DNA of 64,000 nucleotides from NCBI GenBank assembly GCA_000004985.1, contig GG738904.1; one strand, written 5' to 3'. Positions 3,901 to 41,035 of this stretch are shown here, piece after piece (position 1 is the first letter of the stretch; each line of letters starts with the position of its first letter). The notes under the pieces were generated by a model. It was not told where the DNA came from, made no database searches, and was given only the letters and a program-made list of their open reading frames with translations. Position numbers and translations under genes: made by a program. This DNA comes from Naegleria gruberi. Taxonomy: Eukaryota.

Positions 3901-6105
3901 NNNNNNNNNNNNNNNNNNNNNNNNNNNNNNNNNNNNNNNNNNNNNNNNNNNNNNNNNNNNNNNNNNNNNNNNNNNNNNNNNNNNNNNNNNNNNNNNNNNN
4001 NNNNNNNNNNNNNNNNNNNNNNNNNNNNNNNNNNNNNNNNNNNNNNNNNNNNNNNNNNNNNNNNNNNNNNNNNNNNNNNNNNNNNNNNNNNNNNNNNNNN
4101 NNNNNNNNNNNNNNNNNNNNNNNNNNNNNNNNNNNNNNNNNNNNNNNNNNNNNNNNNNNNNNNNNNNNNNNNNNNNNNNNNNNNNNNNNNNNNNNNNNNN
4201 NNNNNNNNNNNNNNNNNNNNNNNNNNNNNNNNNNNNNNNNNNNNNNNNNNNNNNNNNNNNNNNNNNNNNNNNNNNNNNNNNNNNNNNNNNNNNNNNNNNN
4301 NNNNNNNNNNNNNNNNNNNNNNNNNNNNNNNNNNNNNNNNNNNNNNNNNNNNNNNNNNNNNNNNNNNNNNNNNNNNNNNNNNNNNNNNNNNNNNNNNNNN
4401 NNNNNNNNNNNNNNNNNNNNNNNNNNNNNNNNNNNNNNNNNNNNNNNNNNNNNNNNNNNNNNNNNNNNNNNNNNNNNNNNNNNNNNNNNNNNNNNNNNNN
4501 NNNNNNNNNNNNNNNNNNNNNNNNNNNNNNNNNNNNNNNNNNNNNNNNNNNNNNNNNNNNNNNNNNNNNNNNNNNNNNNNNNNNNNNNNNNNNNNNNNNN
4601 NNNNNNNNNNNNNNNNNNNNNNNNNNNNNNNNNNNNNNNNNNNNNNNNNNNNNNNNNNNNNNNNNNNNNNNNNNNNNNNNNNNNNNNNNNNNNNNNNNNN
4701 NNNNNNNNNNNNNNNNNNNNNNNNNNNNNNNNNNNNNNNNNNNNNNNNNNNNNNNNNNNNNNNNNNNNNNNNNNNNNNNNNNNNNNNNNNNNNNNNNNNN
4801 NNNNNNNNNNNNNNNNNNNNNNNNNNNNNNNNNNNNNNNNNNNNNNNNNNNNNNNNNNNNNNNNNNNNNNNNNNNNNNNNNNNNNNNNNNNNNNNNNNNN
4901 NNNNNNNNNNNNNNNNNNNNNNNNNNNNNNNNNNNNNNNNNNNNNNNNNNNNNNNNNNNNNNNNNNNNNNNNNNNNNNNNNNNNNNNNNNNNNNNNNNNN
5001 NNNNNNNNNNNNNNNNNNNNNNNNNNNNNNNNNNNNNNNNNNNNNNNNNNNNNNNNNNNNNNNNNNNNNNNNNNNNNNNNNNNNNNNNNNNNNNNNNNNN
5101 NNNNNNNNNNNNNNNNNNNNNNNNNNNNNNNNNNNNNNNNNNNNNNNNNNNNNNNNNNNNNNNNNNNNNNNNNNNNNNNNNNNNNNNNNNNNNNNNNNNN
5201 NNNNNNNNNNNNNNNNNNNNNNNNNNNNNNNNNNNNNNNNNNNNNNNNNNNNNNNNNNNNNNNNNNNNNNNNNNNNNNNNNNNNNNNNNNNNNNNNNNNN
5301 NNNNNNNNNNNNNNNNNNNNNNNNNNNNNNNNNNNNNNNNNNNNNNNNNNNNNNNNNNNNNNNNNNNNNNNNNNNNNNNNNNNNNNNNNNNNNNNNNNNN
5401 NNNNNNNNNNNNNNNNNNNNNNNNNNNNNNNNNNNNNNNNNNNNNNNNNNNNNNNNNNNNNNNNNNNNNNNNNNNNNNNNNNNNNNNNNNNNNNNNNNNN
5501 NNNNNNNNNNNNNNNNNNNNNNNNNNNNNNNNNNNNNNNNNNNNNNNNNNNNNNNNNNNNNNNNNNNNNNNNNNNNNNNNNNNNNNNNNNNNNNNNNNNN
5601 NNNNNNNNNNNNNNNNNNNNNNNNNNNNNNNNNNNNNNNNNNNNNNNNNNNNNNNNNNNNNNNNNNNNNNNNNNNNNNNNNNNNNNNNNNNNNNNNNNNN
5701 NNNNNNNNNNNNNNNNNNNNNNNNNNNNNNNNNNNNNNNNNNNNNNNNNNNNNNNNNNNNNNNNNNNNNNNNNNNNNNNNNNNNNNNNNNNNNNNNNNNN
5801 NNNNNNNNNNNNNNNNNNNNNNNNNNNNNNNNNNNNNNNNNNNNNNNNNNNNNNNNNNNNNNNNNNNNNNNNNNNNNNNNNNNNNNNNNNNNNNNNNNNN
5901 NNNNNNNNNNNNNNNNNNNNNNNNNNNNNNNNNNNNNNNNNNNNNNNNNNNNNNNNNNNNNNNNNNNNNNNNNNNNNNNNNNNNNNNNNNNNNNNNNNNN
6001 NNNNNNNNNNNNNNNNNNNNNNNNNNNNNNNNNNNNNNNNNNNNNNNNNNNNNNNNNNNNNNNNNNNNNNNNNNNNNNNNNNNNNNNNNNNNNNNNNNNN
6101 NNNNN
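985..6105. other. Assembly gap (5121 N)
   Basis: Run of n characters. Confidence 1.
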
Positions 6106-6610: not shown

Positions 6611-7305
6611 TAATAAAATCACAATTTACTTTTGCAGGTTCTACCACTTCTTGATTACTAGCAAGCTTCAACTCCATTTCACTTAGTCTTGAAAGAAGTA
6701 CATCCATGTTCGCAATATTCCTTCTTGATTTGACTCTAGCTGTACCATTATTCCTGCAAGACTCAACATCTTCCGACTCAGATGAAGAAGGAGAGGATGA
6801 CGAGGAGTCGGTTCTTCTAGAGTGATTCAGAGGAATACTCTGGCTTGTGCTTCCCGAGTCTGAATGATGATGTCTACCAAATTGTCAACTGACCTATCAG
6901 AAGGTAGTTGAATGCCCATTGATTCAATGAGTTCCTCTAATTGATCAATAGAGCACTCTGATAATTCATTTCTTGATTTAAAATACATCTTTCGGAATTA
7001 ATTTGAGACTTCAAGGTATAAATGGGAAGTAGAATCAACAAGTGTTAAAACCATCTTTTATTACACAAAACAAAAGAAATATCCAATTGTCACAATTGAA
7101 CAATACAATAGATTGAAACTTTTCCAAATTACCATTTGAATCGGGAAGTGATGATGATTTTAGTGAACAATATTAAATTTCACTAAAATATTAATATTAT
7201 CAGATTTCCACAAATATTACTATTATAATGATGATAAATAACAATGATGATGGTTGGTAGTTGTTCCGATGTGATGGAACACGGTAGTATCTGGAATTGA
7301 AAAAA

Positions 7306-7513: not shown

Positions 7514-10500
7514 NNNNNNNNNNNNNNNNNNNNNNNNNNNNNNNNNNNNNNNNNNNNNNNNNNNNNNNNNNNNNNNNNNNNNNNNNNNNNNNNNNNNNNN
7601 NNNNNNNNNNNNNNNNNNNNNNNNNNNNNNNNNNNNNNNNNNNNNNNNNNNNNNNNNNNNNNNNNNNNNNNNNNNNNNNNNNNNNNNNNNNNNNNNNNNN
7701 NNNNNNNNNNNNNNNNNNNNNNNNNNNNNNNNNNNNNNNNNNNNNNNNNNNNNNNNNNNNNNNNNNNNNNNNNNNNNNNNNNNNNNNNNNNNNNNNNNNN
7801 NNNNNNNNNNNNNNNNNNNNNNNNNNNNNNNNNNNNNNNNNNNNNNNNNNNNNNNNNNNNNNNNNNNNNNNNNNNNNNNNNNNNNNNNNNNNNNNNNNNN
7901 NNNNNNNNNNNNNNNNNNNNNNNNNNNNNNNNNNNNNNNNNNNNNNNNNNNNNNNNNNNNNNNNNNNNNNNNNNNNNNNNNNNNNNNNNNNNNNNNNNNN
8001 NNNNNNNNNNNNNNNNNNNNNNNNNNNNNNNNNNNNNNNNNNNNNNNNNNNNNNNNNNNNNNNNNNNNNNNNNNNNNNNNNNNNNNNNNNNNNNNNNNNN
8101 NNNNNNNNNNNNNNNNNNNNNNNNNNNNNNNNNNNNNNNNNNNNNNNNNNNNNNNNNNNNNNNNNNNNNNNNNNNNNNNNNNNNNNNNNNNNNNNNNNNN
8201 NNNNNNNNNNNNNNNNNNNNNNNNNNNNNNNNNNNNNNNNNNNNNNNNNNNNNNNNNNNNNNNNNNNNNNNNNNNNNNNNNNNNNNNNNNNNNNNNNNNN
8301 NNNNNNNNNNNNNNNNNNNNNNNNNNNNNNNNNNNNNNNNNNNNNNNNNNNNNNNNNNNNNNNNNNNNNNNNNNNNNNNNNNNNNNNNNNNNNNNNNNNN
8401 NNNNNNNNNNNNNNNNNNNNNNNNNNNNNNNNNNNNNNNNNNNNNNNNNNNNNNNNNNNNNNNNNNNNNNNNNNNNNNNNNNNNNNNNNNNNNNNNNNNN
8501 NNNNNNNNNNNNNNNNNNNNNNNNNNNNNNNNNNNNNNNNNNNNNNNNNNNNNNNNNNNNNNNNNNNNNNNNNNNNNNNNNNNNNNNNNNNNNNNNNNNN
8601 NNNNNNNNNNNNNNNNNNNNNNNNNNNNNNNNNNNNNNNNNNNNNNNNNNNNNNNNNNNNNNNNNNNNNNNNNNNNNNNNNNNNNNNNNNNNNNNNNNNN
8701 NNNNNNNNNNNNNNNNNNNNNNNNNNNNNNNNNNNNNNNNNNNNNNNNNNNNNNNNNNNNNNNNNNNNNNNNNNNNNNNNNNNNNNNNNNNNNNNNNNNN
8801 NNNNNNNNNNNNNNNNNNNNNNNNNNNNNNNNNNNNNNNNNNNNNNNNNNNNNNNNNNNNNNNNNNNNNNNNNNNNNNNNNNNNNNNNNNNNNNNNNNNN
8901 NNNNNNNNNNNNNNNNNNNNNNNNNNNNNNNNNNNNNNNNNNNNNNNNNNNNNNNNNNNNNNNNNNNNNNNNNNNNNNNNNNNNNNNNNNNNNNNNNNNN
9001 NNNNNNNNNNNNNNNNNNNNNNNNNNNNNNNNNNNNNNNNNNNNNNNNNNNNNNNNNNNNNNNNNNNNNNNNNNNNNNNNNNNNNNNNNNNNNNNNNNNN
9101 NNNNNNNNNNNNNNNNNNNNNNNNNNNNNNNNNNNNNNNNNNNNNNNNNNNNNNNNNNNNNNNNNNNNNNNNNNNNNNNNNNNNNNNNNNNNNNNNNNNN
9201 NNNNNNNNNNNNNNNNNNNNNNNNNNNNNNNNNNNNNNNNNNNNNNNNNNNNNNNNNNNNNNNNNNNNNNNNNNNNNNNNNNNNNNNNNNNNNNNNNNNN
9301 NNNNNNNNNNNNNNNNNNNNNNNNNNNNNNNNNNNNNNNNNNNNNNNNNNNNNNNNNNNNNNNNNNNNNNNNNNNNNNNNNNNNNNNNNNNNNNNNNNNN
9401 NNNNNNNNNNNNNNNNNNNNNNNNNNNNNNNNNNNNNNNNNNNNNNNNNNNNNNNNNNNNNNNNNNNNNNNNNNNNNNNNNNNNNNNNNNNNNNNNNNNN
9501 NNNNNNNNNNNNNNNNNNNNNNNNNNNNNNNNNNNNNNNNNNNNNNNNNNNNNNNNNNNNNNNNNNNNNNNNNNNNNNNNNNNNNNNNNNNNNNNNNNNN
9601 NNNNNNNNNNNNNNNNNNNNNNNNNNNNNNNNNNNNNNNNNNNNNNNNNNNNNNNNNNNNNNNNNNNNNNNNNNNNNNNNNNNNNNNNNNNNNNNNNNNN
9701 NNNNNNNNNNNNNNNNNNNNNNNNNNNNNNNNNNNNNNNNNNNNNNNNNNNNNNNNNNNNNNNNNNNNNNNNNNNNNNNNNNNNNNNNNNNNNNNNNNNN
9801 NNNNNNNNNNNNNNNNNNNNNNNNNNNNNNNNNNNNNNNNNNNNNNNNNNNNNNNNNNNNNNNNNNNNNNNNNNNNNNNNNNNNNNNNNNNNNNNNNNNN
9901 NNNNNNNNNNNNNNNNNNNNNNNNNNNNNNNNNNNNNNNNNNNNNNNNNNNNNNNNNNNNNNNNNNNNNNNNNNNNNNNNNNNNNNNNNNNNNNNNNNNN
10001 NNNNNNNNNNNNNNNNNNNNNNNNNNNNNNNNNNNNNNNNNNNNNNNNNNNNNNNNNNNNNNNNNNNNNNNNNNNNNNNNNNNNNNNNNNNNNNNNNNNN
10101 NNNNNNNNNNNNNNNNNNNNNNNNNNNNNNNNNNNNNNNNNNNNNNNNNNNNNNNNNNNNNNNNNNNNNNNNNNNNNNNNNNNNNNNNNNNNNNNNNNNN
10201 NNNNNNNNNNNNNNNNNNNNNNNNNNNNNNNNNNNNNNNNNNNNNNNNNNNNNNNNNNNNNNNNNNNNNNNNNNNNNNNNNNNNNNNNNNNNNNNNNNNN
10301 NNNNNNNNNNNNNNNNNNNNNNNNNNNNNNNNNNNNNNNNNNNNNNNNNNNNNNNNNNNNNNNNNNNNNNNNNNNNNNNNNNNNNNNNNNNNNNNNNNNN
10401 NNNNNNNNNNNNNNNNNNNNNNNNNNNNNNNNNNNNNNNNNNNNNNNNNNNNNNNNNNNNNNNNNNNNNNNNNNNNNNNNNNNNNNNNNNNNNNNNNNNN

Positions 10501-13500
10501 NNNNNNNNNNNNNNNNNNNNNNNNNNNNNNNNNNNNNNNNNNNNNNNNNNNNNNNNNNNNNNNNNNNNNNNNNNNNNNNNNNNNNNNNNNNNNNNNNNNN
10601 NNNNNNNNNNNNNNNNNNNNNNNNNNNNNNNNNNNNNNNNNNNNNNNNNNNNNNNNNNNNNNNNNNNNNNNNNNNNNNNNNNNNNNNNNNNNNNNNNNNN
10701 NNNNNNNNNNNNNNNNNNNNNNNNNNNNNNNNNNNNNNNNNNNNNNNNNNNNNNNNNNNNNNNNNNNNNNNNNNNNNNNNNNNNNNNNNNNNNNNNNNNN
10801 NNNNNNNNNNNNNNNNNNNNNNNNNNNNNNNNNNNNNNNNNNNNNNNNNNNNNNNNNNNNNNNNNNNNNNNNNNNNNNNNNNNNNNNNNNNNNNNNNNNN
10901 NNNNNNNNNNNNNNNNNNNNNNNNNNNNNNNNNNNNNNNNNNNNNNNNNNNNNNNNNNNNNNNNNNNNNNNNNNNNNNNNNNNNNNNNNNNNNNNNNNNN
11001 NNNNNNNNNNNNNNNNNNNNNNNNNNNNNNNNNNNNNNNNNNNNNNNNNNNNNNNNNNNNNNNNNNNNNNNNNNNNNNNNNNNNNNNNNNNNNNNNNNNN
11101 NNNNNNNNNNNNNNNNNNNNNNNNNNNNNNNNNNNNNNNNNNNNNNNNNNNNNNNNNNNNNNNNNNNNNNNNNNNNNNNNNNNNNNNNNNNNNNNNNNNN
11201 NNNNNNNNNNNNNNNNNNNNNNNNNNNNNNNNNNNNNNNNNNNNNNNNNNNNNNNNNNNNNNNNNNNNNNNNNNNNNNNNNNNNNNNNNNNNNNNNNNNN
11301 NNNNNNNNNNNNNNNNNNNNNNNNNNNNNNNNNNNNNNNNNNNNNNNNNNNNNNNNNNNNNNNNNNNNNNNNNNNNNNNNNNNNNNNNNNNNNNNNNNNN
11401 NNNNNNNNNNNNNNNNNNNNNNNNNNNNNNNNNNNNNNNNNNNNNNNNNNNNNNNNNNNNNNNNNNNNNNNNNNNNNNNNNNNNNNNNNNNNNNNNNNNN
11501 NNNNNNNNNNNNNNNNNNNNNNNNNNNNNNNNNNNNNNNNNNNNNNNNNNNNNNNNNNNNNNNNNNNNNNNNNNNNNNNNNNNNNNNNNNNNNNNNNNNN
11601 NNNNNNNNNNNNNNNNNNNNNNNNNNNNNNNNNNNNNNNNNNNNNNNNNNNNNNNNNNNNNNNNNNNNNNNNNNNNNNNNNNNNNNNNNNNNNNNNNNNN
11701 NNNNNNNNNNNNNNNNNNNNNNNNNNNNNNNNNNNNNNNNNNNNNNNNNNNNNNNNNNNNNNNNNNNNNNNNNNNNNNNNNNNNNNNNNNNNNNNNNNNN
11801 NNNNNNNNNNNNNNNNNNNNNNNNNNNNNNNNNNNNNNNNNNNNNNNNNNNNNNNNNNNNNNNNNNNNNNNNNNNNNNNNNNNNNNNNNNNNNNNNNNNN
11901 NNNNNNNNNNNNNNNNNNNNNNNNNNNNNNNNNNNNNNNNNNNNNNNNNNNNNNNNNNNNNNNNNNNNNNNNNNNNNNNNNNNNNNNNNNNNNNNNNNNN
12001 NNNNNNNNNNNNNNNNNNNNNNNNNNNNNNNNNNNNNNNNNNNNNNNNNNNNNNNNNNNNNNNNNNNNNNNNNNNNNNNNNNNNNNNNNNNNNNNNNNNN
12101 NNNNNNNNNNNNNNNNNNNNNNNNNNNNNNNNNNNNNNNNNNNNNNNNNNNNNNNNNNNNNNNNNNNNNNNNNNNNNNNNNNNNNNNNNNNNNNNNNNNN
12201 NNNNNNNNNNNNNNNNNNNNNNNNNNNNNNNNNNNNNNNNNNNNNNNNNNNNNNNNNNNNNNNNNNNNNNNNNNNNNNNNNNNNNNNNNNNNNNNNNNNN
12301 NNNNNNNNNNNNNNNNNNNNNNNNNNNNNNNNNNNNNNNNNNNNNNNNNNNNNNNNNNNNNNNNNNNNNNNNNNNNNNNNNNNNNNNNNNNNNNNNNNNN
12401 NNNNNNNNNNNNNNNNNNNNNNNNNNNNNNNNNNNNNNNNNNNNNNNNNNNNNNNNNNNNNNNNNNNNNNNNNNNNNNNNNNNNNNNNNNNNNNNNNNNN
12501 NNNNNNNNNNNNNNNNNNNNNNNNNNNNNNNNNNNNNNNNNNNNNNNNNNNNNNNNNNNNNNNNNNNNNNNNNNNNNNNNNNNNNNNNNNNNNNNNNNNN
12601 NNNNNNNNNNNNNNNNNNNNNNNNNNNNNNNNNNNNNNNNNNNNNNNNNNNNNNNNNNNNNNNNNNNNNNNNNNNNNNNNNNNNNNNNNNNNNNNNNNNN
12701 NNNNNNNNNNNNNNNNNNNNNNNNNNNNNNNNNNNNNNNNNNNNNNNNNNNNNNNNNNNNNNNNNNNNNNNNNNNNNNNNNNNNNNNNNNNNNNNNNNNN
12801 NNNNNNNNNNNNNNNNNNNNNNNNNNNNNNNNNNNNNNNNNNNNNNNNNNNNNNNNNNNNNNNNNNNNNNNNNNNNNNNNNNNNNNNNNNNNNNNNNNNN
12901 NNNNNNNNNNNNNNNNNNNNNNNNNNNNNNNNNNNNNNNNNNNNNNNNNNNNNNNNNNNNNNNNNNNNNNNNNNNNNNNNNNNNNNNNNNNNNNNNNNNN
13001 NNNNNNNNNNNNNNNNNNNNNNNNNNNNNNNNNNNNNNNNNNNNNNNNNNNNNNNNNNNNNNNNNNNNNNNNNNNNNNNNNNNNNNNNNNNNNNNNNNNN
13101 NNNNNNNNNNNNNNNNNNNNNNNNNNNNNNNNNNNNNNNNNNNNNNNNNNNNNNNNNNNNNNNNNNNNNNNNNNNNNNNNNNNNNNNNNNNNNNNNNNNN
13201 NNNNNNNNNNNNNNNNNNNNNNNNNNNNNNNNNNNNNNNNNNNNNNNNNNNNNNNNNNNNNNNNNNNNNNNNNNNNNNNNNNNNNNNNNNNNNNNNNNNN
13301 NNNNNNNNNNNNNNNNNNNNNNNNNNNNNNNNNNNNNNNNNNNNNNNNNNNNNNNNNNNNNNNNNNNNNNNNNNNNNNNNNNNNNNNNNNNNNNNNNNNN
13401 NNNNNNNNNNNNNNNNNNNNNNNNNNNNNNNNNNNNNNNNNNNNNNNNNNNNNNNNNNNNNNNNNNNNNNNNNNNNNNNNNNNNNNNNNNNNNNNNNNNN

Positions 13501-13723
13501 NNNNNNNNNNNNNNNNNNNNNNNNNNNNNNNNNNNNNNNNNNNNNNNNNNNNNNNNNNNNNNNNNNNNNNNNNNNNNNNNNNNNNNNNNNNNNNNNNNNN
13601 NNNNNNNNNNNNNNNNNNNNNNNNNNNNNNNNNNNNNNNNNNNNNNNNNNNNNNNNNNNNNNNNNNNNNNNNNNNNNNNNNNNNNNNNNNNNNNNNNNNN
13701 NNNNNNNNNNNNNNNNNNNNNNN
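7514..13723. other. Assembly gap (6210 N)
   Basis: Run of n characters. Confidence 1.
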
Positions 13724-29539: not shown

Positions 29540-30851
29540 ATGAAGTGAAATAAAAAATTAATTGTAAATTCAAATATGAAAATTGAAGTTTAGTTTGTAA
29601 TATGTTTGAGAATCCAACAAGTTCAAAGATATTAATGGTCCTTCCACCTTGTGTGTCATGTACTCTAGTGTAAAAAAATCAAAAAGGCTGTGTGAAAAGT
29701 GAGCTTAACTTTACAACATGTGATCGTTCAATGCGTGCGTACGATCTCCGATCTATTGAGAAGAAACCAGTTGTTGAAAATTGCAAACTTGAAGATTTAA
29801 CGTTTCGAAAAAAAATTCATGAGTAGTAACAAGTAGGCCGCTAATTTGCTTGCTAGAAAAGACTCTGATCACACACTATGTAAGTCATCATTCTTAAATA
29901 TCTTGGCAAGATATTAATTTCTACATTTCACCAATTTGCTTGTAAAAATTTACAAATTGCAATTTTAATGATCCAATGATAATAATAATGATCATCATCC
30001 GATACCTAATTAACTTGATCATATTAATACTACCATGATCATCAATGATGATATTGTACACTTTGTATGCAAATTGTCGTGATGAAAAATCTTGTCAAAC
30101 ACTTTTGGATTAATTTCCAAATATGGACTCTTTAATATTGGTCCTTTTTCTTGCATTACTCTCTGTGTTGATCGTCACCAAAACACTCAATTGGTTCTTT
30201 CTCTATCAACATTCCATTCAATATTGCATTTCCTCTCCTTTCTTAACCCAATTGACCAAAATCTTGAAAAAATCGATGAAATTTCTTATTGGGCTCTTGT
30301 TGTTCTTTGTTTGTTATTCGTGGTATTCTTCTTTCAAAATACTTGCCATTGCTCCGAATGAAAACTTTGAAAAATCCTTGCAATATCGGAATGCTTCCTC
30401 TTTCCAATTTCATATCAAATCTTCCATCCTTGCTGCTTGTCTAAATTCCCACCACTCTAACAATGCAAATACTTGCAAATCTTCCTCCACTCATAACCAT
30501 CGTGCTGATGTTAATGATGCTGAACCAATTTTTGAACTTTCCTGTCGTTGCACAACTTTAAATCCGATGAATAATGATCCTTCTCTCACCACCAAAAACA
30601 ACCTCGACCAAATATTGCAACAATACCAAAATTCATTGACTTTGGACTCCCCGAATCAATCGACCACCCCCAACTACTACGGCTCTTGTTCTGTTACTGA
30701 CAATCGTGATGATGATGCTTCTGGTGCTTCTTCCTCTGCTTCTTCCTCTGCAACTGCTACCTTGATTAATACCAACCAAAATAGTACTAAAAACTCTCTC
30801 AAAGAAGTAGAAGAAAAAACAACAACTCCCTCCAAACAACTCTTAGAAATA

Positions 30852-32723
30852 ATGAATAAGAACGACTTGTATGCACTTGCTCCAAATCACTTCCTCTACA
30901 ATCCAATGTTGAATAAGGATACCGCATTCACAGTGGAGGATCGTGAAAAATTGGGTCTTCGTGGATTGTTGCCACCACACGTTGAGACCATTACTCATCA
31001 ATTGGTGAGATGCTTGAGACAATTCCGTAACTTTAAAAATCCATTGGACAAGTATGTTTACTTGATGAGTTTGCAAGGTAGAAATCAAACCTTGTTCTTT
31101 AAATTGTTGATTGATAACATGGTTGAAATGTTGCCAATTGGTAAGTTGATGATAATAATTTTGCATTCCAAAGTTTTTAACACATTCTCTCTCATCTGTG
31201 TGAAATTTACTTGTTATTTTGCTTAATACAAATAATAATGCTTCGGAACCACCACAACAAAACACAACATTCATTTACCACTCTTTTTAACATTATAAAC
31301 AGTCTACACACCAACTGTTGGTGATGCTTGTCTTCAATTCGACCAAATTTGGAGAGTTGCTCAAGGCATGTACATCTCATTGGAAGATAAGGGATCAATT
31401 TCTGCAATTTTGAAGAATTGGGAACCAAAGCAACCAGATATTATTGTCGTTTCCGATGGTTCACGTATTTTGGGTCTTGGTGATTTGGGTGCTAATGGTA
31501 TGGGTATTCCAATTGGTAAATTGAATCTCTATGTTGCTGCTGCTGGTTTCCATCCAGATAAGACTTTGCCAATTTGCATTGATGTTGGTACTAACAATCC
31601 AGGATTGTTGGAAGATGATTTATATTTGGGATTGAAGAGAAAGCGTGTTCGTGGACAAGAATTCTTTGATTTCATGAAGGAATTTATGATTGCTGTCAAG
31701 ACTACATGGCCAAATTGTTTAGTCCAATTCGAAGATTTCTCAAATGATGTCTGTTTCGATTTATTGGATCAATATCGTAATGAACAATTGTGTTTCAATG
31801 ATGATATCCAAGGTACTGGTGCTGTCATTGTTGCTGGTTTCATCAATGCTGCCAAGATTACTGGTAAGAGAACTTATCAACACAAATTATTATTTATGGG
31901 AGCTGGTTCTGCTGCCACTGGTGTCGCTGATCAATGTGTTGGTGTCATGAAATTGCAAGCTGAAGAAGATGGATTGAGCAAGGAAGAAATTGATGCCATG
32001 TCTGAACATTGGGTTTATTTGGTCGATTCTAAGGGATTAGTTACACAAACTCGTTCTGATTACGAAGAAATGCCACATCACAAGAAGAAGTATGCCAAGA
32101 AGGGTGATGAAACTTTGGGTAACTTCCAATCCAAATCTCTTTTGGAAATTGTTCAAAAGACTCAACCAACTGCTCTCATTGGTCTCTGTGGTCAATCTGG
32201 TGTTTTCACTCAAGATATCATTGAAGAAATGGCCAAGATTAACCAAAAGCCAATCGTTTTTGCCTTGTCCAACCCAACTAAGAATTCTGAATGTACTGCC
32301 AAGGAAGCTATTGAATATTCAAGTGGAAGAGCTATCTTTGCTTCTGGTTCTCCATTCGAAGATGTTACTTACAATGGAAAGACTTATCAATTGAGTCAAG
32401 GTAACAATTTGTACATTTTCCCAGCTTTGGGTCTTGGTGCTGTCGTTACCAGATCAAAGCACGTTTCTGATGTTATGATTTTGAGAGCTGCTCAAACTTT
32501 GGCCGATCTCACAAGCCAAGATAGATTGGACAATGGATTGTTGTATCCAAGTTTGACAAATATCAGAGAAATTGCTCAAAAGATTGCTGTCCAAGTTGGT
32601 AAACAAAGTGTTAAGGAAGGTCTTTCTCAATTGACTGAAGAACAATTACCAAAATCTGAAGAAGAATGGGTTAAAATTGTTAAGGATTATGTATATACTC
32701 CAGATTATGAGTCCAAATTGTAA
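30852..32723 (+). CDS. Malic enzyme (NAD(P)-dependent malate dehydrogenase, decarboxylating)
   Basis: Exons 30852..31140 and 31303..32723, with a 162-nt GT-AG intron. The splice recreates LPI|VYTPTVGDACLQF. Other motifs: GLLPP, GIPIGKLNLYVAAAGF, FNDDIQGTGAV, FMGAGSAATG. The same frame stays open upstream to ATG 30123, a possible 243-aa extension. Confidence 0.9.
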
Positions 32724-33081
32724 ATATTTCAACAATTAATTTAAACCAACTATTATAAACATTTAATATTTCACTGATATTATTTCACACACTTTCAATA
32801 TATTCTCCATTCCAATCGCAACAGCGTCCAACCATACTCAATTCTGTCCAATTCTATCTAAATGCAACCTGAGGATCTCCTTCACAACCAAGCGCATCAA
32901 CCAAACACTAGTCCGACCAGCACTACGATCCTAGTGCACTTCAATTAATATCATGTCATGAAATCTCTCCACCGTATTACTTTTAAACAAAAAGAAAAAA
33001 AATCTCCAATTGTTAACTGTACAAATCTTTCATCTTTTTCCGAAAGTTAGAGAATAATTTGAAAGAGAAGGTGAACACAAA

Positions 33082-34089
33082 ATGACTAGTCAAGAGAGTA
33101 ATGATGGATCAATTTCCTATGGATGGTGGATTGCCACTCTTTTAATAGGAATTGTCCTGATGAGAATATTGCAATTAATTATGAAATTGAAAAGACAAAT
33201 AAGCAAGGCTGGTGGAACTCCTGGTTATTGGCAATTATTGGCTGAAGGCTTGTTTATCATGCCAATTCTTTCGCCCTATATTGCTCATGGTAATTTCCCA
33301 GTGATTCAAGGATTGATTGCTAAGGAGGAAGAGAGAGCTAAGGGAAGTGATGAAAAGCAATTGATTATTCGTGTCAGTACTCCCTATAGAAATAATTATG
33401 TAATTTGGGATAAGGATTCAGTGAAGGAAGTTTTAGTTACAAAATCATCATCCTTTCCAAAACCTTTGGATTTTTATGAACCTTTCAATATTTTCGATAA
33501 GGATGCTACTTCAATTTTGACAGCTGCCGATGGTCCAGTTTGGAAGAATCATAGACATGTGGTGGCTCCTTCATTCTCAACTGGTAATTTGGTTTTTATG
33601 AGTCAAGTGACTGTAAAGACAGTTGATGCATTGTTTAGAACAAAGTGGAATAAGTTATTGGACCAGGATAGTAAGGGATTCATTATGGATATGGAAGATA
33701 CTACAGCTGTCACTCTTCAAATTATTGGTGAAAGTGGATTTGGTATGGATTTTGGTGTTTTCGATGAAACTAGCTCTGATTCTAAAAAGTTTAGAGAAGC
33801 ATTGAATATTGTCGTGAGAGTTGACTATTATGCCAGATTCTTCCTTGCTAAAATCCCATTCCTTTACAATGCAGTTTCTGATTATACTGGAAATACAGAA
33901 GCTCTCAAGGTGATGAGTGAAAAGCTTGAACAATGCATTTCTCAAAGAGTAGCCGAATTCAAACAAGATCCAGAAAAACCAATGAATGATTTATTGTCGC
34001 TCCTTGTTAAGGCAAACATGATGGATGAAAAACTCACACTCAATGAATTGAAGAGTAACAGTTACATCTTCGTAGTTGCAGGTCATGAG
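33082..34089 (+). CDS. Cytochrome P450 (copy 1), 5' portion, ending inside the I-helix motif ...FVVAGHE; interrupted by a 5.09-kb insertion
   Basis: N-terminal TM anchor (WWIATLLIGIVLMRIL) and an alignable paralog at 55239. The frame reads gca ggt cat gag then tat tga. The missing continuation TTATTMQW... is found at 39234. Confidence 0.8.
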
Positions 34090-34618
34090 TATTGAAAATC
34101 AGAAGGTGTTCTTAAAGATGGTCACTGGTGCCATCAATGGTTTGATTCGTGGATTTTGGTTAAAGATATTATTCCACTTGAAGAACATTCTTCAATTATT
34201 AGGAGATGTTACAGCATGCTATGTGGAAAGTACCGTTAATATTTCCAAAGATATTTTGGAAATGTACAGTTTCATAATGAAGGAATCATTTTTGGAAAGA
34301 TTAAATTCAAGAATTGAGGAGAGAAATCTTTTATGTATTGATTTTGAAATTGTTAACAATGGATTGGTAGATAGGAATGCAGAGTGTTTTAACTCATGGT
34401 ATGAAAATGTATCTAAACATCTTATTGATTGGTCAAGTAAGGCTGTAAGTAATCGATTTGCAGAGTTTACAGAGTTAGTGGATGAAATTTTTGGTCAAGT
34501 TAAGAATGATTATGCAATGATTGCTGATAAAACTATTGAAAAGAGAACAATGGAGTATAATTTTATTACTGAAAAGAAGAGAAGATTGACAGAATTGATC
34601 AAAGAGTTAAAAAAGTAG
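34085..34618 (+). CDS. Hypothetical helical protein (177 aa), first ORF of the insertion
   Basis: Its ATG is the ATG inside the left CATGAG junction repeat. The peptide is MSIENQKVFLKMVTGAINGL...KKRRLTELIKELKK. No family recognised. Confidence 0.35.
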   Translation: MSIENQKVFLKMVTGAINGLIRGFWLKILFHLKNILQLLGDVTACYVESTVNISKDILEMYSFIMKESFLERLNSRIEERNLLCIDFEIVNNGLVDRNAECFNSWYENVSKHLIDWSSKAVSNRFAEFTELVDEIFGQVKNDYAMIADKTIEKRTMEYNFITEKKRRLTELIKELKK

Positions 34619-34675
34619 ATTGGTAATGAGTAAATTGAATTGTGTCTGTGCAATTCTGATTGTATTCTTGTAAAG

Positions 34676-35070
34676 TGGTGATGGTACCTGTCAGGTACCG
34701 TCACAGGTACTTGGCAGGTACGATTTTTACCATCACAGGTACCGTCACAGGTACTTGGCAGGTATCACAGGTACCATCAGGTACCATCAGGTACCATCAC
34801 AGGTACCGTCACAGGTGCAAATGGTACCTGACAAGTACAATCACAGGTACCGTCACAGGTATCTGAATTTCCTCACAGGTACCATCACAGGTACTTGGCA
34901 GGTATCACAGGTACCATCACAGGTACCATCACAGGTACCGTCACAAGTACTTGGACCATCACAAGTACCCTTACAAGGACTTGTAAGGTGCTCAACACGT
35001 ACCTACAGTGTCTGACAAGTATGGTACCTCACAATAACCATCACAGCTACAACAAACACCATAACAAATA
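34676..35070. repeat. Degenerate minisatellite, about 12-bp unit CACAGGTACC(R)T with a palindromic GGTACC core, about 28-30 units
   Basis: Direct reading: ...ggtaccgtcacaggtacttggcaggta...ggtaccatcacaggtaccatcacaggtaccgtcaca... It lies between the convergent 3' ends of ORF 34085-34618 and gene 35100-36299. Confidence 0.85.
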
Positions 35071-35099
35071 CTTTTTATATCTCCTCCAATCAACTATAT

Positions 35100-36299
35100 T
35101 TATTTGAAATATTTGGATTTCTTAATAGGTCTATGGACATTATGATCATTTTCTGAATCAGAACTAATACCACCTCTATCTGAAGAATCTTCTTCAACAT
35201 CTTCTTCTTCATCATCCTCTTCAACTTCACAATGATCAGCATTTCCAAAGCAAATATTGTACCAAATTGGAGGACCTTCATCAGACTTGTTACAATCATC
35301 TTTATCCATTTGCTTTTCAAAGAATAACTCCATTTCAAAGGCATCAAGTTCTTCATTCAATTGAATAACATCCTTAACAGGTGGTTCTATGATGGCTTCC
35401 TCTTCAATATAACCATTCTCATTGTAACGATTGATGAGAAGAACTGTTTCCTTTGAGGTGTCAAATATCTCTTCTTCCTCCTTCTCATTAAAATCAATAC
35501 TTTCATCATCTGCTATAGTTGCAGATTCCTTCTTTTCATACTCCACAATTAAATTCAAACCACTAACATCTGGTTTGATTACAAGACTGGAAAGCGTGTC
35601 TTCATTTAGAGATGGCAAATCATCATATGGGAAAACAATACTTTGAGTTTCACTAACGGATGAGTATCCATCTTGATCTGCTCTAGCCATTTCGACAGAA
35701 TCATCATCAGTGAGTGCATCATCTTCTGTTAGAATCAATGGTTCATTAAATACATCAACTTGTTCTTCCATCTGAGTTTCTGCACTTGATATAATCAATA
35801 AAGGTTGAACCAATTCATATCTCTCATTGGTGTAAGAGTAAAGGTCAATGTCATCATTGTTTAATAACAAGTTTAACAATGTTGAATTACTAGTCTGTGA
35901 AAGCACTTTTCCCTTCTTACTAAACTCTCCAACAAATGCTTGGAAATTGAATTCACTATTACATTGTTCCAACTCTTTGAAATAAATCAAAGAAGGGTTC
36001 ATTTCAAGTAAATCTGCCAAATCTTCTAATTTACTATCCATGGATAAAAAGTCATCATGCTTCTTCTCCTTAAAAATCAAAAGTAAGAGACAAAGTGCAA
36101 AATAATCACAAGAGTAATCTGCTGATAATCCATTAATATCATCTTGATTGATAGGATCGTTACCAAGCCAAAAAGATGTCAATTCCTTCCTTAGCTTGAT
36201 ATCCAAATAACAGAAATCACTGACAACTTCACTATAAAATTTCTTCTTTACTAATTCTTCTACTAAACACCACTTGTTGAAATATGTATTGTACAACAT
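35100..36299 (-). CDS. Acidic hypothetical protein (399 aa) inside the insertion
   Basis: Uninterrupted ORF from ATG 36299 with a D/E-rich C-terminal half (EVEEDDEEEDVEEDSSD). It is divergent from the Myb-endonuclease gene across a 345-bp spacer containing a (TA)n tract. Confidence 0.5.
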   Translation of the reverse strand: MLYNTYFNKWCLVEELVKKKFYSEVVSDFCYLDIKLRKELTSFWLGNDPINQDDINGLSADYSCDYFALCLLLLIFKEKKHDDFLSMDSKLEDLADLLEMNPSLIYFKELEQCNSEFNFQAFVGEFSKKGKVLSQTSNSTLLNLLLNNDDIDLYSYTNERYELVQPLLIISSAETQMEEQVDVFNEPLILTEDDALTDDDSVEMARADQDGYSSVSETQSIVFPYDDLPSLNEDTLSSLVIKPDVSGLNLIVEYEKKESATIADDESIDFNEKEEEEIFDTSKETVLLINRYNENGYIEEEAIIEPPVKDVIQLNEELDAFEMELFFEKQMDKDDCNKSDEGPPIWYNICFGNADHCEVEEDDEEEDVEEDSSDRGGISSDSENDHNVHRPIKKSKYFK

Positions 36300-36644
36300 G
36301 ATGGATTATTCCTTTTTTTTCAAAAACAAAAGCTTTCACACAACCTCGAGTCGTGTGAAATGTCTCACACTCTAATATTTTAATATTTTTATAAGGCTTG
36401 AATATATATATATATATATTGAAAAGGGATTGACCGAAACTGGAAGACACATTAATTGGATATCTAAAGAGACCAAACAAATTTTCCTCAGAATTGAAGA
36501 GTCACGTCGCTACGTCCCTCAAGACATCCACACAACTTTGCAAATTAATACAATTGAGAAAAAAAAACTACTTTTATTTTCGACTCAACTTTGTTACAAG
36601 TAACAACACACATCAAATTCCAACACAGAACTCAATATAGCAGA

Positions 36645-38966
36645 ATGATAAGAAAAAACTGGTTAAAAGAAGAAGAAGATCTTTTGGTCAAATTGGTAAA
36701 GGAAAAAGGCCACAATTGGACTGAAATTGCTCCCAACTTCGATGTTACTCCAAATGCCTGCCACAAAAAGTATAAGGATTTGTTAAAGAATCTTGGCAGG
36801 AAAAGATCGTTCTGGACTGATGAAATGAAAGCTAATCTCCTTAAATTAGCAAAAGAATATGCCGATAAAGGAATAGAGAAATGGAAGATTATTGAGGAAA
36901 AATTAGGAAAAGAAGCTAAAGCTTGCCAACAGCATTTTTATTATTTAGTCAAACAGCACGGGTTGGATTCTAATGATTTCAACAGCGTCAGACCATTTTG
37001 GACCATGGAAGAGAAGCGCGAATTGACTGAGTTAGTCAATTTGCATGGAAGGAAGTGGAAGAAAATTGAGAAACTAATTAGCTGCAACAGAGATGCTCAT
37101 TCTTGTCAGAGCCAGTTTATGCTATTAGAAAGTAGACAGAATGATCCAATTGAAAAGAAGTTGAACGATATCTTTCAAGCAACGACTTCAGAGACAGATT
37201 TGAATGAAATCTCTCTTTACGAATTCTTCAATATCCCAACAAGTAGATACAATGGGGTTCCAGCATCGACTTTGTTGGTGGATCAAGCAGATGAAGTTGA
37301 TGAAGAAACATTTCATCGTTCTTACATGGCTGGAGATACTGAATTTAGTGTACGTGAGGTTGCAACTGGTAGATTGGTCAGAAAAACCATTGAGGAGATT
37401 TATCTTTCCAGTGGAACATATGAAACATATAGTATTGAATCTGGATTTAATGTGGAAGAAATTGGTAAGTTTCGTTTCAATTACTATTTTCAAAGAATAA
37501 TAATAATGAAAGAATGTAAATTGTTTCCAGCAAATGAAGTATTAGAGTTGAGTGCTACTTGTTTCAAAGCAAAATTATATTTCAATGAATGTGCTCGAAT
37601 TGTTGAAGAGAAACGTTTCATATTTTCCGAACAAGTTCAAGTCCGTCCAGATGAGTGCAGTAGTGTGAGATTACCTGTATCAGATCTTCAAGACAATATG
37701 TTCATCATTAATAACTATCAATTGAAATCCAAGGAAAAGCTTGTAAGAACATCATTACCATGTGGTCAACTTACTGACACCACCCAAACAAAAGAATGTA
37801 AGTATTTTATGAATTATTCTCATAATATTTTAAAGATTTTGACATTTTGTTCAGAACTTTCCCAACTCTAGTTGACTCCAAAGACAAACAGGGAGTCATG
37901 GTTCAACTATTGGGAGCCTATTTAGCAGATGGTGATGGAGGATACTTTAAATTGTATTTTAATGCCAAAAATGAGCAAGAACTTACCTATTATTTTACAG
38001 ATTTCTTAAAAGAAATTTGTGAATTGAATTCAGAGACAATAAGAGAGGATCTTAAATTCAAGAAAGAGGAAGAGTATGTCACCATTAAGCTCAATGATAA
38101 GAATGCTGACAAGGATATTGAACGAGTCTTACAAAATGGTTATCAAATATCCGGGTCCATACTTGTTGCACCTGCATGGTATGTTTTTCACTTTCAATAC
38201 ATTTTTACTAGTAACAAATAGTACTGGCTTACACAGATTTTTAAAAGAAATAGAATTGTTATGTAATAAGTATAATGGCAGTTACCAAACTAGAAAGAAT
38301 TTCTCTTCCATCTTCAACATTACAAATTTTGGTATGTTTAGCTTGTACAAATTTTTCGAAGGTTCTGTACAAGGAGATGGCACATTAGAGAGTAATCGTG
38401 TAACGTTTGGTCAGAATTGTTCAATTTCAGATACTCACCAACAGTACTTTAATCAGGTCCACCATTGTGCAACCATGCTTGGGTTAAAGACTGGCGTGGG
38501 TAAAGTGTGTGAAGAAACTACAGGTTTGAAAATGACTGGTAAGAACATGACCATTTTTGAAAGTGAAGGACTTGAGAAAAAGAAAGTAAATGCAGATGTT
38601 GTGTTTAGACCATTTAATCTTACAGTTCAAAGATTAATAGGTGAATCAATGAAGAAGATGTACTGTTTCAAGAAGAGTAATCACTCCTTCCCAATGTTTA
38701 ATGGAATGATAGTGCAAAATGTTGATACTGATCTAGTTTCTGCTAAAATATGTTATGGGAATAGATGGGAAATTCGTGAAATGGACAACTATGAATCTGC
38801 TGCCACTTTCTGCTTGAAGAAATATATTGCTTCCTTAGGGTTTCCAAGTGACCGTATGACAAGAAATGCTGTAAGAAGATTAATACTAAAAATAGAAGGA
38901 ATAGTATCTGTTAAAAGAAAGCAAAAATCAAACAAGGAATCAAACAAGAAAGTTAAAACACAATAA
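36645..38966 (+). CDS. 3x Myb/SANT repeats fused to an intein-derived Hint domain with an embedded double-LAGLIDADG homing-endonuclease domain (HO-like architecture), 746 aa
   Basis: Exons 36645..37797, 37836..38178, 38222..38966; the 38-nt and 43-nt introns keep frame. Myb repeats: KNWLKEEEDLLVKLVKEKGHNWTEIA, SFWTDEMKANLL...KWKIIEEKL, PFWTMEEKRELTELVNLHGRKWKKIE. Intein block A YMAGDTEFSVREVATGRLVRKTIEEI; LAGLIDADG-1 QLLGAYLADGDGGY; LAGLIDADG-2 LYKFFEGSVQGDGT; blocks F/G KSNHSFPMFNGMIVQNV. Confidence 0.75.
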
Positions 38967-39060
38967 CATTTCAATTAAAGAATATATTTACTGAACTTTA
39001 TTAAATGACTTTTTATTTCTGAATAAACAAAAGTATATTGAGCACTTTTGCATCCATTTG

Positions 39061-39178
39061 AAAATTGACAATCATTTCTGCTGAAATGGTCATGTAAGAA
39101 GTATGAATTATGTCATTCTGGAAACTCTTCGTATTCATCCACCTGTAACATGTGTTTAGAGTTGCTAAGAAGACAACC
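39061..39178 (+). pseudogene. Orphan, frame-broken cytochrome P450 fragment (K-helix ExxR region) at the right edge of the insertion
   Basis: It reads ...MNYVILETLRIHPPVTCV*, then after a frame shift RVAKKTTT. At nucleotide level it is closer to P450 copy 2 (atgaactatgtc...attatggaaact) than to copy 1. It is out of order relative to the host gene. Confidence 0.55.
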
Positions 39179-39233
39179 ACATGAGGTTCGTGTTTTATAA
39201 TTAATTTTACAAGTGTTTAACAAAATATTTAAG

Positions 39234-39842
39234 ACGACTGCCACAACCATGCAATGGTTAATGTACGAATTGTCCAAGCGTCCAGAAGCTCAACAAAAGG
39301 CCAGAGAAGAAGCAATCAGAATTGGAGGAGGTGACAATGTTTTGAGAGCTCCAGATTTTGATGATTACAACAATATGGACTATATTCATGGTTGTGTAAT
39401 GGAATGCTTACGTCTCCATCCACCAGTCGTTTCCATGGTAAAAACCTGTGCCAAATCTACCAAAATTGGAAAAACAAGCATTCCAAAGGGATCTTGCATC
39501 TATGTAAATGCCAAGGCCTGTCACTTGTACGGTGAAGATTTTAACACCACTGAATTTACTGGTGCTCAATTCGCTCCAGAAAGATTTTTGGATAAGGATT
39601 TCAAACAAAAGGTTCAAACAAGTGGAGCATGGTTCCCATTCAATATGAGTAATAGAAAATGCATTGGTTACATGTTTGCCCAAATTGAATTGTGTATCAT
39701 GTTGTGTAGAATGTTGCAATTTTATGAATTCAAATTGTTGAATGATGAAAGTAAACCAGCTGAGAAGGTTGAAGATCTTCCTGGTATTACCTTTAGACCA
39801 TCTTCTAATTTGAAGGTTTTGGTAACAAGAAGAACAAAATAA
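39234..39842 (+). CDS. Cytochrome P450 (copy 1), 3' portion
   Basis: It begins TTATTMQWLMYEL, the continuation of AGHE|TT. It carries ECLRLHPP (ExxR), FAPERF and the heme loop FPFNMSNRKCIGYMFA. It is preceded by catgag (39180-39185) and a 48-nt GT-AG intron (39186-39233). Confidence 0.8.
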   Translation, partial: TTATTMQWLMYELSKRPEAQQKAREEAIRIGGGDNVLRAPDFDDYNNMDYIHGCVMECLRLHPPVVSMVKTCAKSTKIGKTSIPKGSCIYVNAKACHLYGEDFNTTEFTGAQFAPERFLDKDFKQKVQTSGAWFPFNMSNRKCIGYMFAQIELCIMLCRMLQFYEFKLLNDESKPAEKVEDLPGITFRPSSNLKVLVTRRTK

Positions 39843-39964
39843 ATATGAATGTGTAAATATTTATTATACTTAATATATTTAAATTATTGAAATATTGAAA
39901 TATTGAAATTGTAAAGTTTTTAAATAGTTTAAAAATAGAGTTTACAATTTTAAAAAAATAAAAA

Positions 39965-41035
39965 ATGTCTGATGACCAAAAACAAGAAGAAATTGCTTCG
40001 GAAGAAACCATGGAACATATCGCCCAACTGATCAACAAGGCAAGAAGAGTCGTTGTATTTTCTGGTGCTGGTATGAGTGCAGAGTCTGGAATTGATACTT
40101 TCAGAGGAGGAGGTGGTTTATGGACCGGATTGATGGGAAAATTGTTTTTGGCTTATGGAGGTGAGTGGATTTGTCTTTAAATTCGTGTTTATATATATTG
40201 GATATATTGGATTGTATTTAAAATTATTAAAATTATTTAAATATTATTTGATGGTAATTGATTGGAATAATTTATAAATTAATTATTCGTGTGATGATTA
40301 TATGAATGAATGAATTGATGGAATATGATAATATTAGGAACACCATTTGGATGGAATATAACACCACAGATTTGTTGGGGACAATATATTAAACGATTTT
40401 ATGGACCGATTGCTAAAGCTGATCCAAATAATGGACATTTTGCATTGGCCAAGTTGGAACAAGAAGTGTTTGGAGATTATATGGAAGTTATTACACAAAA
40501 TGTTGATGGATTGCATCAAAGAGCTGGATCAACTCATGTCTATGAAGTGCATGGTACAGTAATGAGACATTGCTGTATTGCTGAACGTCACATTTTCGAT
40601 TTTGATGAATATTGGGGAGAAGAGAATGATGAAAAGAAAATGGACTTGCCAGACAAGTCACCAAAATGCAAACATCCAGGGTGTAATAGTACACTTCGTC
40701 CTGATTGTGTCCTATTTACAGAAGCCCTGCCAATGGACCAATGGGAACCTTCTTTCCATGCAGTTGACAGAATGAGAAAGGGAGATGTCATGATTTGTGT
40801 TGGAACAAGTGCCAAGGTCTATCCAGCTGCTTCACTTCCTGGAAGAGCTGCCAGAAGAGGAGCTCATTTAATTGAATTCAATTTGGAAGAAACAGATTAC
40901 AATCAATTACCGAATTATATATTCGTTAAGGGTCCAAGTGGTCAAACACTTCCAACCATTGTAGATAGAGTAATTGAATTGAGAAATGCAAATCAATCAA
41001 TACCATCGGAAAATATTTCTCAAATTGTAGAATAA
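39965..41035 (+). CDS. Sir2-family NAD-dependent protein deacylase (CobB/SIRT5-like)
   Basis: Exons 39965..40160 and 40338..41035, with a 177-nt intron. Motifs: GAGMSAESGIDTFRGGGGLW, ITQNVDGLHQRAG, EVHG, CKHPGC...RPDCVLFTE, CVGTSAKVYPAASL. Confidence 0.85.

Follow-up and report, generated by a model that had tools for sequence, protein, structure and literature searches.

To our knowledge, homing elements that reside in nuclear genes for proteins without being introns or inteins have so far been found only in a few budding-yeast genera, as the WHO and HO elements. In the WHO elements a free-standing LAGLIDADG gene with a DNA-binding domain occupies one insertion site in a host gene and spreads by gene conversion, and damaged 3' fragments of the host gene lie downstream of the nuclease gene and serve as recombination homology (Coughlan et al. 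2020, PMC7282813; Osborne et al. 2026, preprint 10.64898/2026.08.13.744650). Cleaved targets have been made resistant by conversion from diverged homologues, and one clade has an intron exactly at the cleavage site (PMC7282813; 10.64898/2026.08.13.744650). A locus that can be compared with these elements is described here from Naegleria gruberi, in a stretch of 64,000 nucleotides of contig GG738904.1 (assembly GCA_000004985.1), called the window below. There a P450 gene, copy 1, is interrupted at its I-helix by a cassette that includes a Myb gene and two orphan open reading frames (ORFs A and B), and a short, frame-broken piece of P450 K-helix sequence lies at the right end of the cassette.

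The stray piece is a real, decayed remnant of a different P450 gene inside the cassette. It is moderately probable that this remnant is what is left of the 3' half of a P450 gene of the type of N. fowleri P0007 and the environmental gene L003, lying in a 5,144-bp insertion that was copied by break repair from a paralogue. Similar, moderate confidence is placed in the view that the cassette moves between members of the P450 family by homology-directed repair and that the fragment is a visible trace of this movement.

The 5' exon of copy 1 (33082..34089) ends with ...VVAGHE, and the frame resumes at 39234, past a 48-nt intron. The 5' exon reads into HEY-stop and ORF A, the 3' exon is 5.1 kb distant, and the host gene is not rebuilt; also in the public annotation the two halves are separate genes, NAEGRDRAFT_73304 (P0005) and NAEGRDRAFT_73308 (P0008). 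The orthologues of copy 1 in N. lovaniensis and N. fowleri are uninterrupted. The window has a GC content of ~33% and short GT..AG introns, and its N-run scaffold gaps are present only outside the region of interest (985..6105, 7514..13723 and 59750..60919, ~12.5 kb of the window), none of them close to the cassette or to either of the two P450 copies. The features around the two junctions are as follows, the empty allele being an uninterrupted copy 1 from an environmental sample and intron position 0 being counted from the Glu codon of the I-helix.

33082..34065, plus strand: native part of the 5' exon of P450 copy 1 (NAEGRDRAFT_73304; Pfam p450 1.5e-17), 99.5% identical to the empty allele on contig L008 (5 differences/984 nt)
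34066..34089, plus strand: converted patch, I-helix codons 329-336 including the left CATGAG; ATCTTCGTAGTTGCAGGTCATGAG = IFVVAGHE, 9/24 nt off the empty allele
39056..39084, plus strand: possible intron-derived start of the relic (the 'IDNH' stretch), weak; 22/29 ungapped match to the position-0 intron of copy 2
39082..39101, plus strand: possible relic piece of the I-helix end (QW.MYE), suggestive; best local match for 5/8 templates
39102..39179, plus strand: K-helix relic, MNYV---ILETLRIHPPVTCV and a stop, then a frameshift and RVAKKTT
39180..39185, plus strand: second CATGAG, His-Glu codons of a P450 I-helix; inserted DNA, not in the empty allele; ACATGAGGTTCGT is the same as in copy 2
39186..39233, plus strand: 48-nt GTTCGT...AG intron at position 0; inserted DNA, not in the empty allele
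39234..39842, plus strand: 3' exon of P450 copy 1 (NAEGRDRAFT_73308, P0008), 98.8% identical to the empty allele

The WHO elements are the closest analogue of this arrangement; the cassette is not classed as a WHO element but may work like one. Both have a nuclear, free-standing gene in which LAGLIDADG motifs are fused to a DNA-binding module, one precise insertion site in a protein-coding host gene, and presence/absence polymorphism between strains. Both spread by gene conversion, in which host sequence is co-converted, both have a damaged host 3' fragment downstream of the nuclease or nuclease-like gene, and in both the relatives have introns at the target site. The differences are several: the Naegleria host gene is split while the WHO host is rebuilt with a replacement 3' half, the cassette protein has an N-terminal triple Myb instead of a C-terminal zinc finger, and the cassette has no detectable intein/Hint homology. 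Furthermore, it contains two further ORFs and a minisatellite, its relic comes from a paralogue and not from an allele, its host is a heterolobosean amoeboflagellate, and its nuclease is putative.

The relic region 39102..39156 reads MNYVILETLRIHPPVTCV and is followed by TAG; after a 1-nt shift the frame continues as RVAKKTT and ends 1 nt before the CATGAG at 39180..39185. The sequence is thus as given in an earlier note on this DNA, which had reported a frame-broken K-helix piece directly before the right CATGAG. A hidden Markov model (HMM) was built from Naegleria-clade P450s and run on all six frames of the 5.1-kb insert. Only one P450-like piece was found in the cassette, at 39100..39165 (HMM positions 382-407), and no P450 relic was detected at the left cassette end, as would be expected if the left junction was homologous. 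The relic corresponds to the K-helix; its place in the gene is 47-72 codons further downstream than the interruption (HMM 335/336), which agrees with the distance of about 60 codons proposed earlier. It has the K-helix ExxR (ETLR) and then the HPP stretch (IHPPV), both at the correct positions of the p450 profile. Among 2000 six-frame peptides of the 64-kb window, the relic peptide reached 12.3 bits (E=0.0046) while the best non-P450 peptide reached 3.6 bits (E=2.1). The only family match of the 25-aa relic peptide in Pfam was p450 (E=0.11, profile positions 325-348).

For a chance resemblance of the fragment, or an assembly artefact behind the whole arrangement, speak the shortness of the piece and a Pfam E-value that alone is 0.11. 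Such an explanation is nevertheless highly improbable: the family HMM sets the relic apart from all 2000 background peptides, nucleotide z-scores reach 12.9, the sequence is free of N runs from 16152 to 59749, the annotation independently splits the gene, and the two features spanning the junctions are mutually consistent.

The relic is a pseudogene fragment whose reading frame is not intact. It has a 3-codon (9-nt) deletion relative to every family member (MNYV---ILET), a stop codon and a frameshift, altogether at least three lesions in ~80 nt, whereas no such damage is seen in ORF A, ORF B, the Myb gene or either half of copy 1. The contrast between the damaged relic and its intact neighbours favours the relic having been carried along as old flanking DNA over a fresh copy of an intact paralogue. 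Carried flanking DNA and ectopic repair had been offered as two scenarios, and they are not mutually exclusive. No poly(A) tract, as a processed (retro-copied) pseudogene would have, adjoins the relic; N. gruberi-type genes lack the K-helix intron in any case. The relic (39082..39179) begins ~116 nt past the stop codon of the Myb gene (38964..38966) and has the same orientation, its weak intron-like part starting from 39056.

When long gaps were allowed in the alignments, two more colinear blocks were found upstream of the relic. The segment AAATGG-TCATGTAAGAAG (39082..39101) aligned to the I-helix end QW(I/L)MYE at the homologous position, and it was the top match for five of the eight templates (each p 0.04-0.12). 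The segment 39056..39084 matched the position-0 intron of copy 2 at 22 of 29 positions (tile null p=0.023), but equal scores occurred also between unrelated introns. It is possible that the relic thereby includes intron-derived sequence, but the evidence for both upstream blocks is suggestive only. The 'IDNH' stretch, which the earlier note had counted as part of the P450 piece, found no support in the HMM as P450 coding sequence, and neither did an origin of 'IDNH' as an FDDY relic.

The affinity of the relic to different templates was measured as a nucleotide alignment z-score against shuffles. The highest score was obtained with the N. fowleri paralogue P0007 (locus L004; z = 12.9), followed by the N. 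fowleri orthologue (10.0), the N. lovaniensis orthologue (8.2), the environmental L003 (7.7) and copy 2, a second P450 gene of the window (4.9). The interrupted host gene itself, copy 1, scored only 1.7. With P0007, 26 of 28 nucleotides were identical over the core TGGAAACTCTTCGTxTxCATCCACCTGT. In the two blocks that copy 2 retains, 22 of 24 nucleotides were shared with copy 2 and 14 of 24 with copy 1, so that the piece indeed resembles copy 2 more than copy 1, and P450 matches well beyond chance, which the earlier note had made decisive, were found. Judged from these alignments, the relic is not derived from the interrupted copy 1 and is closest to the P0007-type subfamily.

In the searched collection no annotated N. 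gruberi proteins of this P450 clade were found beyond the two halves of copy 1, which implies that the donor would be an unannotated gene or a pseudogene. Scans of metagenomes for a donor-type K-helix and for family members gave nothing. Copy 2 was considered as a donor and found unlikely: it is divergent, sharing only 37-42% identity with every other member, it matches the patch at only ~18/24 nt, and its QWVCYEL does not fit the putative QW.MYE piece of the relic. Gene conversion between copies 1 and 2 beside the junction was also rejected, the third-position identity there (0.40-0.45) being the same as elsewhere. The gene model of P0007 (L004 4001..5519) is annotated as only 356 aa and lacks HMM positions ~65-166; it may be truncated or mis-modelled.

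Among the proteins clustered at 90% identity with the N-terminal half of copy 1 was a 478-aa protein from run ERR1078381. Contigs with the corresponding gene were obtained from two independent assemblies of this run, L008 (ENA) and L009 (Logan). Their source is an environmental, near-identical N. gruberi-like genome in which copy 1 is uninterrupted. L008 shows the same synteny as the window, intergenic DNA included, also with the malic-enzyme gene upstream. The contigs were 98.2% identical to 30087..34088 and 98.8% identical to 39234..39661 of the window. The junction of the empty allele reads ...TAC GTC ATG GTT ATT GCC GGC CAC GAA|ACT ACT GCC..., with CACGAA|ACTACTGCC unbroken. Relative to it, the insertion covers 34090..39233 (5,144 bp), including the cassette, the relic, the second CATGAG and the 48-nt intron. 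The edge of the insertion had earlier been placed at the right CATGAG; as the second CATGAG and the intron are also missing from the empty allele, the true right edge is at 39233.

The empty allele has no CATGAG and differs in nine codons, so the two CATGAGs did not arise by target-site duplication and no transposition took place at this site. Insertion of an ordinary transposon or a Helitron that had captured a P450 fragment, with CATGAG as its 6-bp target-site duplication, would agree with the presence of CATGAG on both sides and with the multi-copy nature of the cassette. Against it stand the empty site CACGAA|ACT, without CATGAG and without the intron, the nine consecutive differing codons, and the absence of terminal inverted or direct repeats and of transposase, Rep/Hel, reverse transcriptase and integrase domains, which make this explanation very improbable. 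Also a direct search of the cassette found neither terminal repeats nor transposase-like domains. With PIF/Harbinger elements, which combine a Myb-like protein with a DDE nuclease, the cassette shares a Myb-like DNA-binding protein and a second ORF; it differs in that a DDE domain, terminal inverted repeats and a 3-bp target duplication are all missing, and cut-and-paste insertion cannot account for the empty site.

The homing genes of group I and II introns and of inteins resemble the cassette in their site-specific insertion at a highly conserved coding motif and in the co-conversion of flanking markers seen against the empty allele. The cassette differs from them in that no self-splicing RNA was detected, no in-frame intein is present, and canonical splicing cannot restore AGHE|TT. 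The cassette ORFs are out of frame with the P450, and no canonical splice pair was found that would remove the whole cassette and restore AGHE|TT; one in-frame option would add ELLRRQP. Structured RNAs or tRNAs were not found in the cassette, nor Rfam intron families at E<=1 in 32500..40500.

The two alleles differ conspicuously around the insertion. In the patch the empty allele has GTCATGGTTATTGCCGGCCACGAA (VMVIAGHE) and the window ATCTTCGTAGTTGCAGGTCATGAG (IFVVAGHE). Not one of the nine codons 329-337 (eight before the insertion, one after it) is shared by the two alleles; six differ synonymously and three conservatively. Elsewhere only 9 of 469 codons differ, six of them synonymously (clustering, Fisher p=8.5e-13). 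At the nucleotide level 10 of 27 positions differ in the patch vs 9 of 1409 elsewhere (p~1e-12). The patch amino acids IFVVAGHE are identical to those of N. fowleri P0007 and of L003. On the right side, G/T at 39236 is the sole difference in the first 98 nt of the 3' exon; it makes the first codon ACG, which is used for none of the 31 other Thr codons, and this codon is probably donor-derived. A paralogue-type patch that straddles the insertion indicates that the insertion was copied by gene conversion from a member of the P450 family. The patch arrived together with the cassette or, if the history is read in reverse, replaced it; it is the signature of break repair by gene conversion. The empty allele, the 27-nt patch and the relic of a different subfamily together bear out the suggestion that the history of the cassette is tied to the P450 family, by a former host flank or by ectopic repair.

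In the reverse reading, IFVVAGHE and the position-0 intron would be ancestral to copy 1 and the environmental allele would be a later derivative. The cassette and the relic would have come from a P0007-type host through a homologous invasion at the I-helix on one side only, and the end of the relic (..ACAACCA) would have been end-joined to the CATGAG of copy 1, giving the CATGAG duplication. In the environmental allele, a break at the same site would have been repaired from an intron-less paralogue or complementary DNA, whereby the intron was lost and nine codons were recoded, possibly to a cleavage-resistant form. The number of events is equal to that of the favoured scenario, YIF is the family consensus while YVM is unique to the environmental allele, and the position-0 intron is present also in copy 2 and L003. 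In the WHO experiments, moreover, cleaved alleles gained resistance by conversion from a diverged homologue (PMC7282813). The codons GGC and CAC of the environmental allele are rare in copy 1, but GAG and ACG at the junction of the window allele are likewise rare there, and codon usage is ambiguous on the polarity. No known family member has YVMVIAGHE and could have served as the template. Furthermore, AGHE is preceded by Ile in the environmental allele and the true orthologues; the window allele and the P0007-type genes have Val there, in agreement with the type of the relic. On balance this order of events is considered rather improbable.

The favoured history, with the cassette entering an empty copy 1, would have proceeded in a few steps. 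A double-strand break would have occurred at or beside the I-helix codons of the empty copy 1, and the repair would have been copied from a paralogous P450 that already had the cassette at the same exon/intron junction. About 24 nt would have been co-converted at the left, where the junction is seamless, and the relic, the CATGAG, the intron and one codon would have been transferred at the right. The relic itself would stem from an earlier hop with a non-homologous right junction, ..ACAACCA being joined to CATGAG; the 3' part of the old host would have stayed attached and then decayed. Going one step further, the break may have been made by the cassette's own 734-aa protein, in which case the cassette would be a putative homing-type element of the conserved P450 I-helix that hops between paralogues and, in contrast to introns, inteins and the WHO elements, leaves its host gene in two pieces.

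The cassette itself includes the following features.

34085..34618, plus strand: ORF A, 177 aa, orphan, unannotated
34683..35050, no strand: GGTACC-rich 12-nt minisatellite within the cassette
35100..36299, minus strand: ORF B (NAEGRDRAFT_73306), 399-aa acidic orphan protein
36645..38966, plus strand: Myb gene (NAEGRDRAFT_73307), 734 aa; introns 37798..37871 and 38179..38221, in-frame splice model

The start codon of ORF A is the ATG of the left CATGAG, and an open frame of 177 codons in DNA of 33% GC should be very unlikely by chance. ORF B has no family matches in Pfam, NCBIfam or PHROGs. The Myb gene consists of three ORF pieces joined in frame by the removal of its two short introns. The cassette is present twice in the genome, the copies being 95-99% identical and the second one being NAEGRDRAFT_65339 / NAEGRDRAFT_47624: the second copy of ORF B, NAEGRDRAFT_65339, is identical at 394 of 399 positions and lies on a 573,072-bp scaffold, and the same scaffold has the second copy of the Myb gene (P0002, 95% identical). 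Elsewhere in the window no cassette sequence was found. The model of the second Myb copy (P0002 vs P0001) skips Myb repeat 2, the first LAGLIDADG core and a third segment. The amino-acid divergence between the copies is ~5% for the Myb gene vs 1.3% for ORF B; P0002 may be decaying, or its protein may be faster-evolving. The minisatellite, between ORF A and ORF B, has ~20 units and higher-order periods of 32, 44 and 108 nt. A further contig from the same sample as the empty allele, L010 (1..1097, ENA ERZ929261), contains a truncated 3' end of ORF B together with the minisatellite, 89% identical, so that the minisatellite is linked to the ORF B 3' end there as well, and is joined to unrelated sequence at a point matching ~35403 of the window. 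By its sequence L010 is best described as an older cassette fragment in a different context. The locus tags were searched for in the literature, and nothing was found.

The interest of the locus hinges on the question of site-specific nuclease activity in the Myb-LAGLIDADG protein. The 734-aa protein has three Myb repeats (Pfam ~1e-20) and two canonical LAGLIDADG-type cores, LLGAYLADG (residue 397) and FEGSVQGDG (532), 135 residues apart. The core pattern, chosen after the motifs had been seen, was met once in about 69,000 background residues, and the probability that two such cores fall at this spacing by chance is roughly 6e-5. The nuclease function is put forward as a hypothesis and not as a result.

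An alternative needs no nuclease encoded by the element. A chance break or a replication collapse would have been followed by template switching, by synthesis-dependent strand annealing (SDSA) or microhomology-mediated break-induced replication (MMBIR), in which P450 paralogues and an unrelated segment with two genes served as templates; ORF B and the Myb gene would be ordinary host genes, duplicated passively. No profile, structure or homologue backs nuclease activity, the host gene is destroyed, only two copies are present, and conversion near a pre-existing insertion would copy the insertion whatever broke the DNA. The likeness to known ectopic (interlocus) conversion or templated insertion by SDSA or MMBIR lies in a short paralogue patch on both sides of a large copied segment, together with an older non-homologous junction between relic and CATGAG. 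Such conversion is, on the other hand, normally sporadic and gives no account of a cassette found repeatedly at the same motif of one gene family. The insertion is at the same conserved exon/intron junction where the relic appears to start, recombination between paralogues so diverged is rare without a targeted break, and the two canonical LAGLIDADG cores have a typical spacing and stand beside a DNA-binding module. Across the family, moreover, six different intron positions are found no more than 17 nt to either side, and a second conversion-like feature is present at the same place. A history without a nuclease is regarded as possible but doubtful.

Several observations weigh against the favoured history of cassette transfer between paralogues and against its putative nuclease. 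The donor locus is not among the sequences compared, and the family search contained no annotated P450 from the 573-kb scaffold. The host gene is disrupted, which is atypical of a successful homing element, and no more than two copies and a single polymorphic site are known. The patch may also run in the other direction, with the environmental allele as the converted one, and the intron-like and I-helix-end parts of the relic are each weak individually. For the protein, Hom_end gave 12.5 bits (E=0.16), under the cut-off, and LAGLIDADG_3 a weak match (E=0.1). Searches of PDB (phmmer), NCBIfam and PHROGs gave no support for a nuclease, no Hint match was found, and an exhaustive HMMER search with exon 3 returned only the paralogue and two spurious repeat proteins. 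Two AlphaFold runs reached a pLDDT (predicted local distance difference test) of 31 and 39, and the models were unusable.

The second P450 gene of the window is the following.

55239..56928, plus strand: P450 copy 2, divergent unannotated paralogue; 7-nt micro-exon ACATGAG at 56333..56339; ~43 codons lost in frame after the K-helix ET

Copy 2 is absent from the annotation and readable in frame solely via its micro-exon. The lost ~43 codons extend from the ExxR arginine through the beta-strands before PERF (56540..56600), the loss starting exactly after ...ATGGAAACT; copy 2 is probably a pseudogene, as far as its sequence tells.

Intron positions relative to the I-helix Glu codon were counted in eight related P450 genes within +/-17 nt of the insertion point. 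Six different positions were found, and two genes had no intron there.

L003 (~1740-1890): introns at -17 and 0
L006/L007 (L006 ~3020-3175): intron at -8
Copy 2 (56287..56395): introns at -7 and 0
Window copy 1 (34066..34089, 39186..39236): intron at 0
N. lovaniensis and N. fowleri orthologues (L001 ~7060-7215; L002 ~7054-7240): intron at +8
N. fowleri P0007 (L004 ~4480-4760): intron at +17
L005 (~2780-2870) and the empty allele: no intron

Two of these arrangements yield micro-exons, of 7 and 17 nt. The K-helix intron by contrast has a single, conserved position in all three genes in which it is present, and those genes have only 1-5 introns in total. The scatter at the I-helix, a count made without statistical control, may fit a site that was broken and repaired repeatedly, or selection in favour of introns that interrupt the target of a nuclease. 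The mini-introns of copy 2, L003 and L006 were tried as decayed footprints of the cassette and rejected (p=0.7-0.9), and homology of the two GTTCGT introns at position 0 was not significant (p=0.3). The 48-nt GTTCGT intron of copy 1 (39186..39233) is missing at ~4007/4008 of L008, so that the insert brings an intron to an otherwise 98-99% identical, intron-less gene. Were the DNA between the two CATGAG copies deleted, the net result would be a clean intron gain.

Taken further, these observations could be joined in a tentative picture, doubtful as a whole, in which the cassette is a WHO-like homing element outside the fungi. Its Myb-LAGLIDADG protein would cut the DNA for the universally conserved I-helix motif of P450 (AGHE|TT), and the element would spread between alleles and paralogues by gene conversion with host relics attached. 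Repeated breakage would lie behind the intron scatter and the micro-exons, introns arising, or being retained, as they split the recognition site.

Even on a conservative reading, the locus clearly exemplifies, in nature, the transfer of a 5-kb insertion from one paralogue to a diverged other, in which no more than ~24 nt of flank was co-converted. It also offers a testable case for two ideas of long standing: for the origin of new spliceosomal introns at double-strand break sites, as the insert delivers a ready-made intron to an intron-less allele, and for introns that protect a target site from a nuclease. A polymorphic, conversion-borne cassette at a conserved enzyme motif in a distant eukaryote, with a relic of its former host, suggests that elements of this kind may be more widespread and that they can move between paralogues, not between alleles alone.

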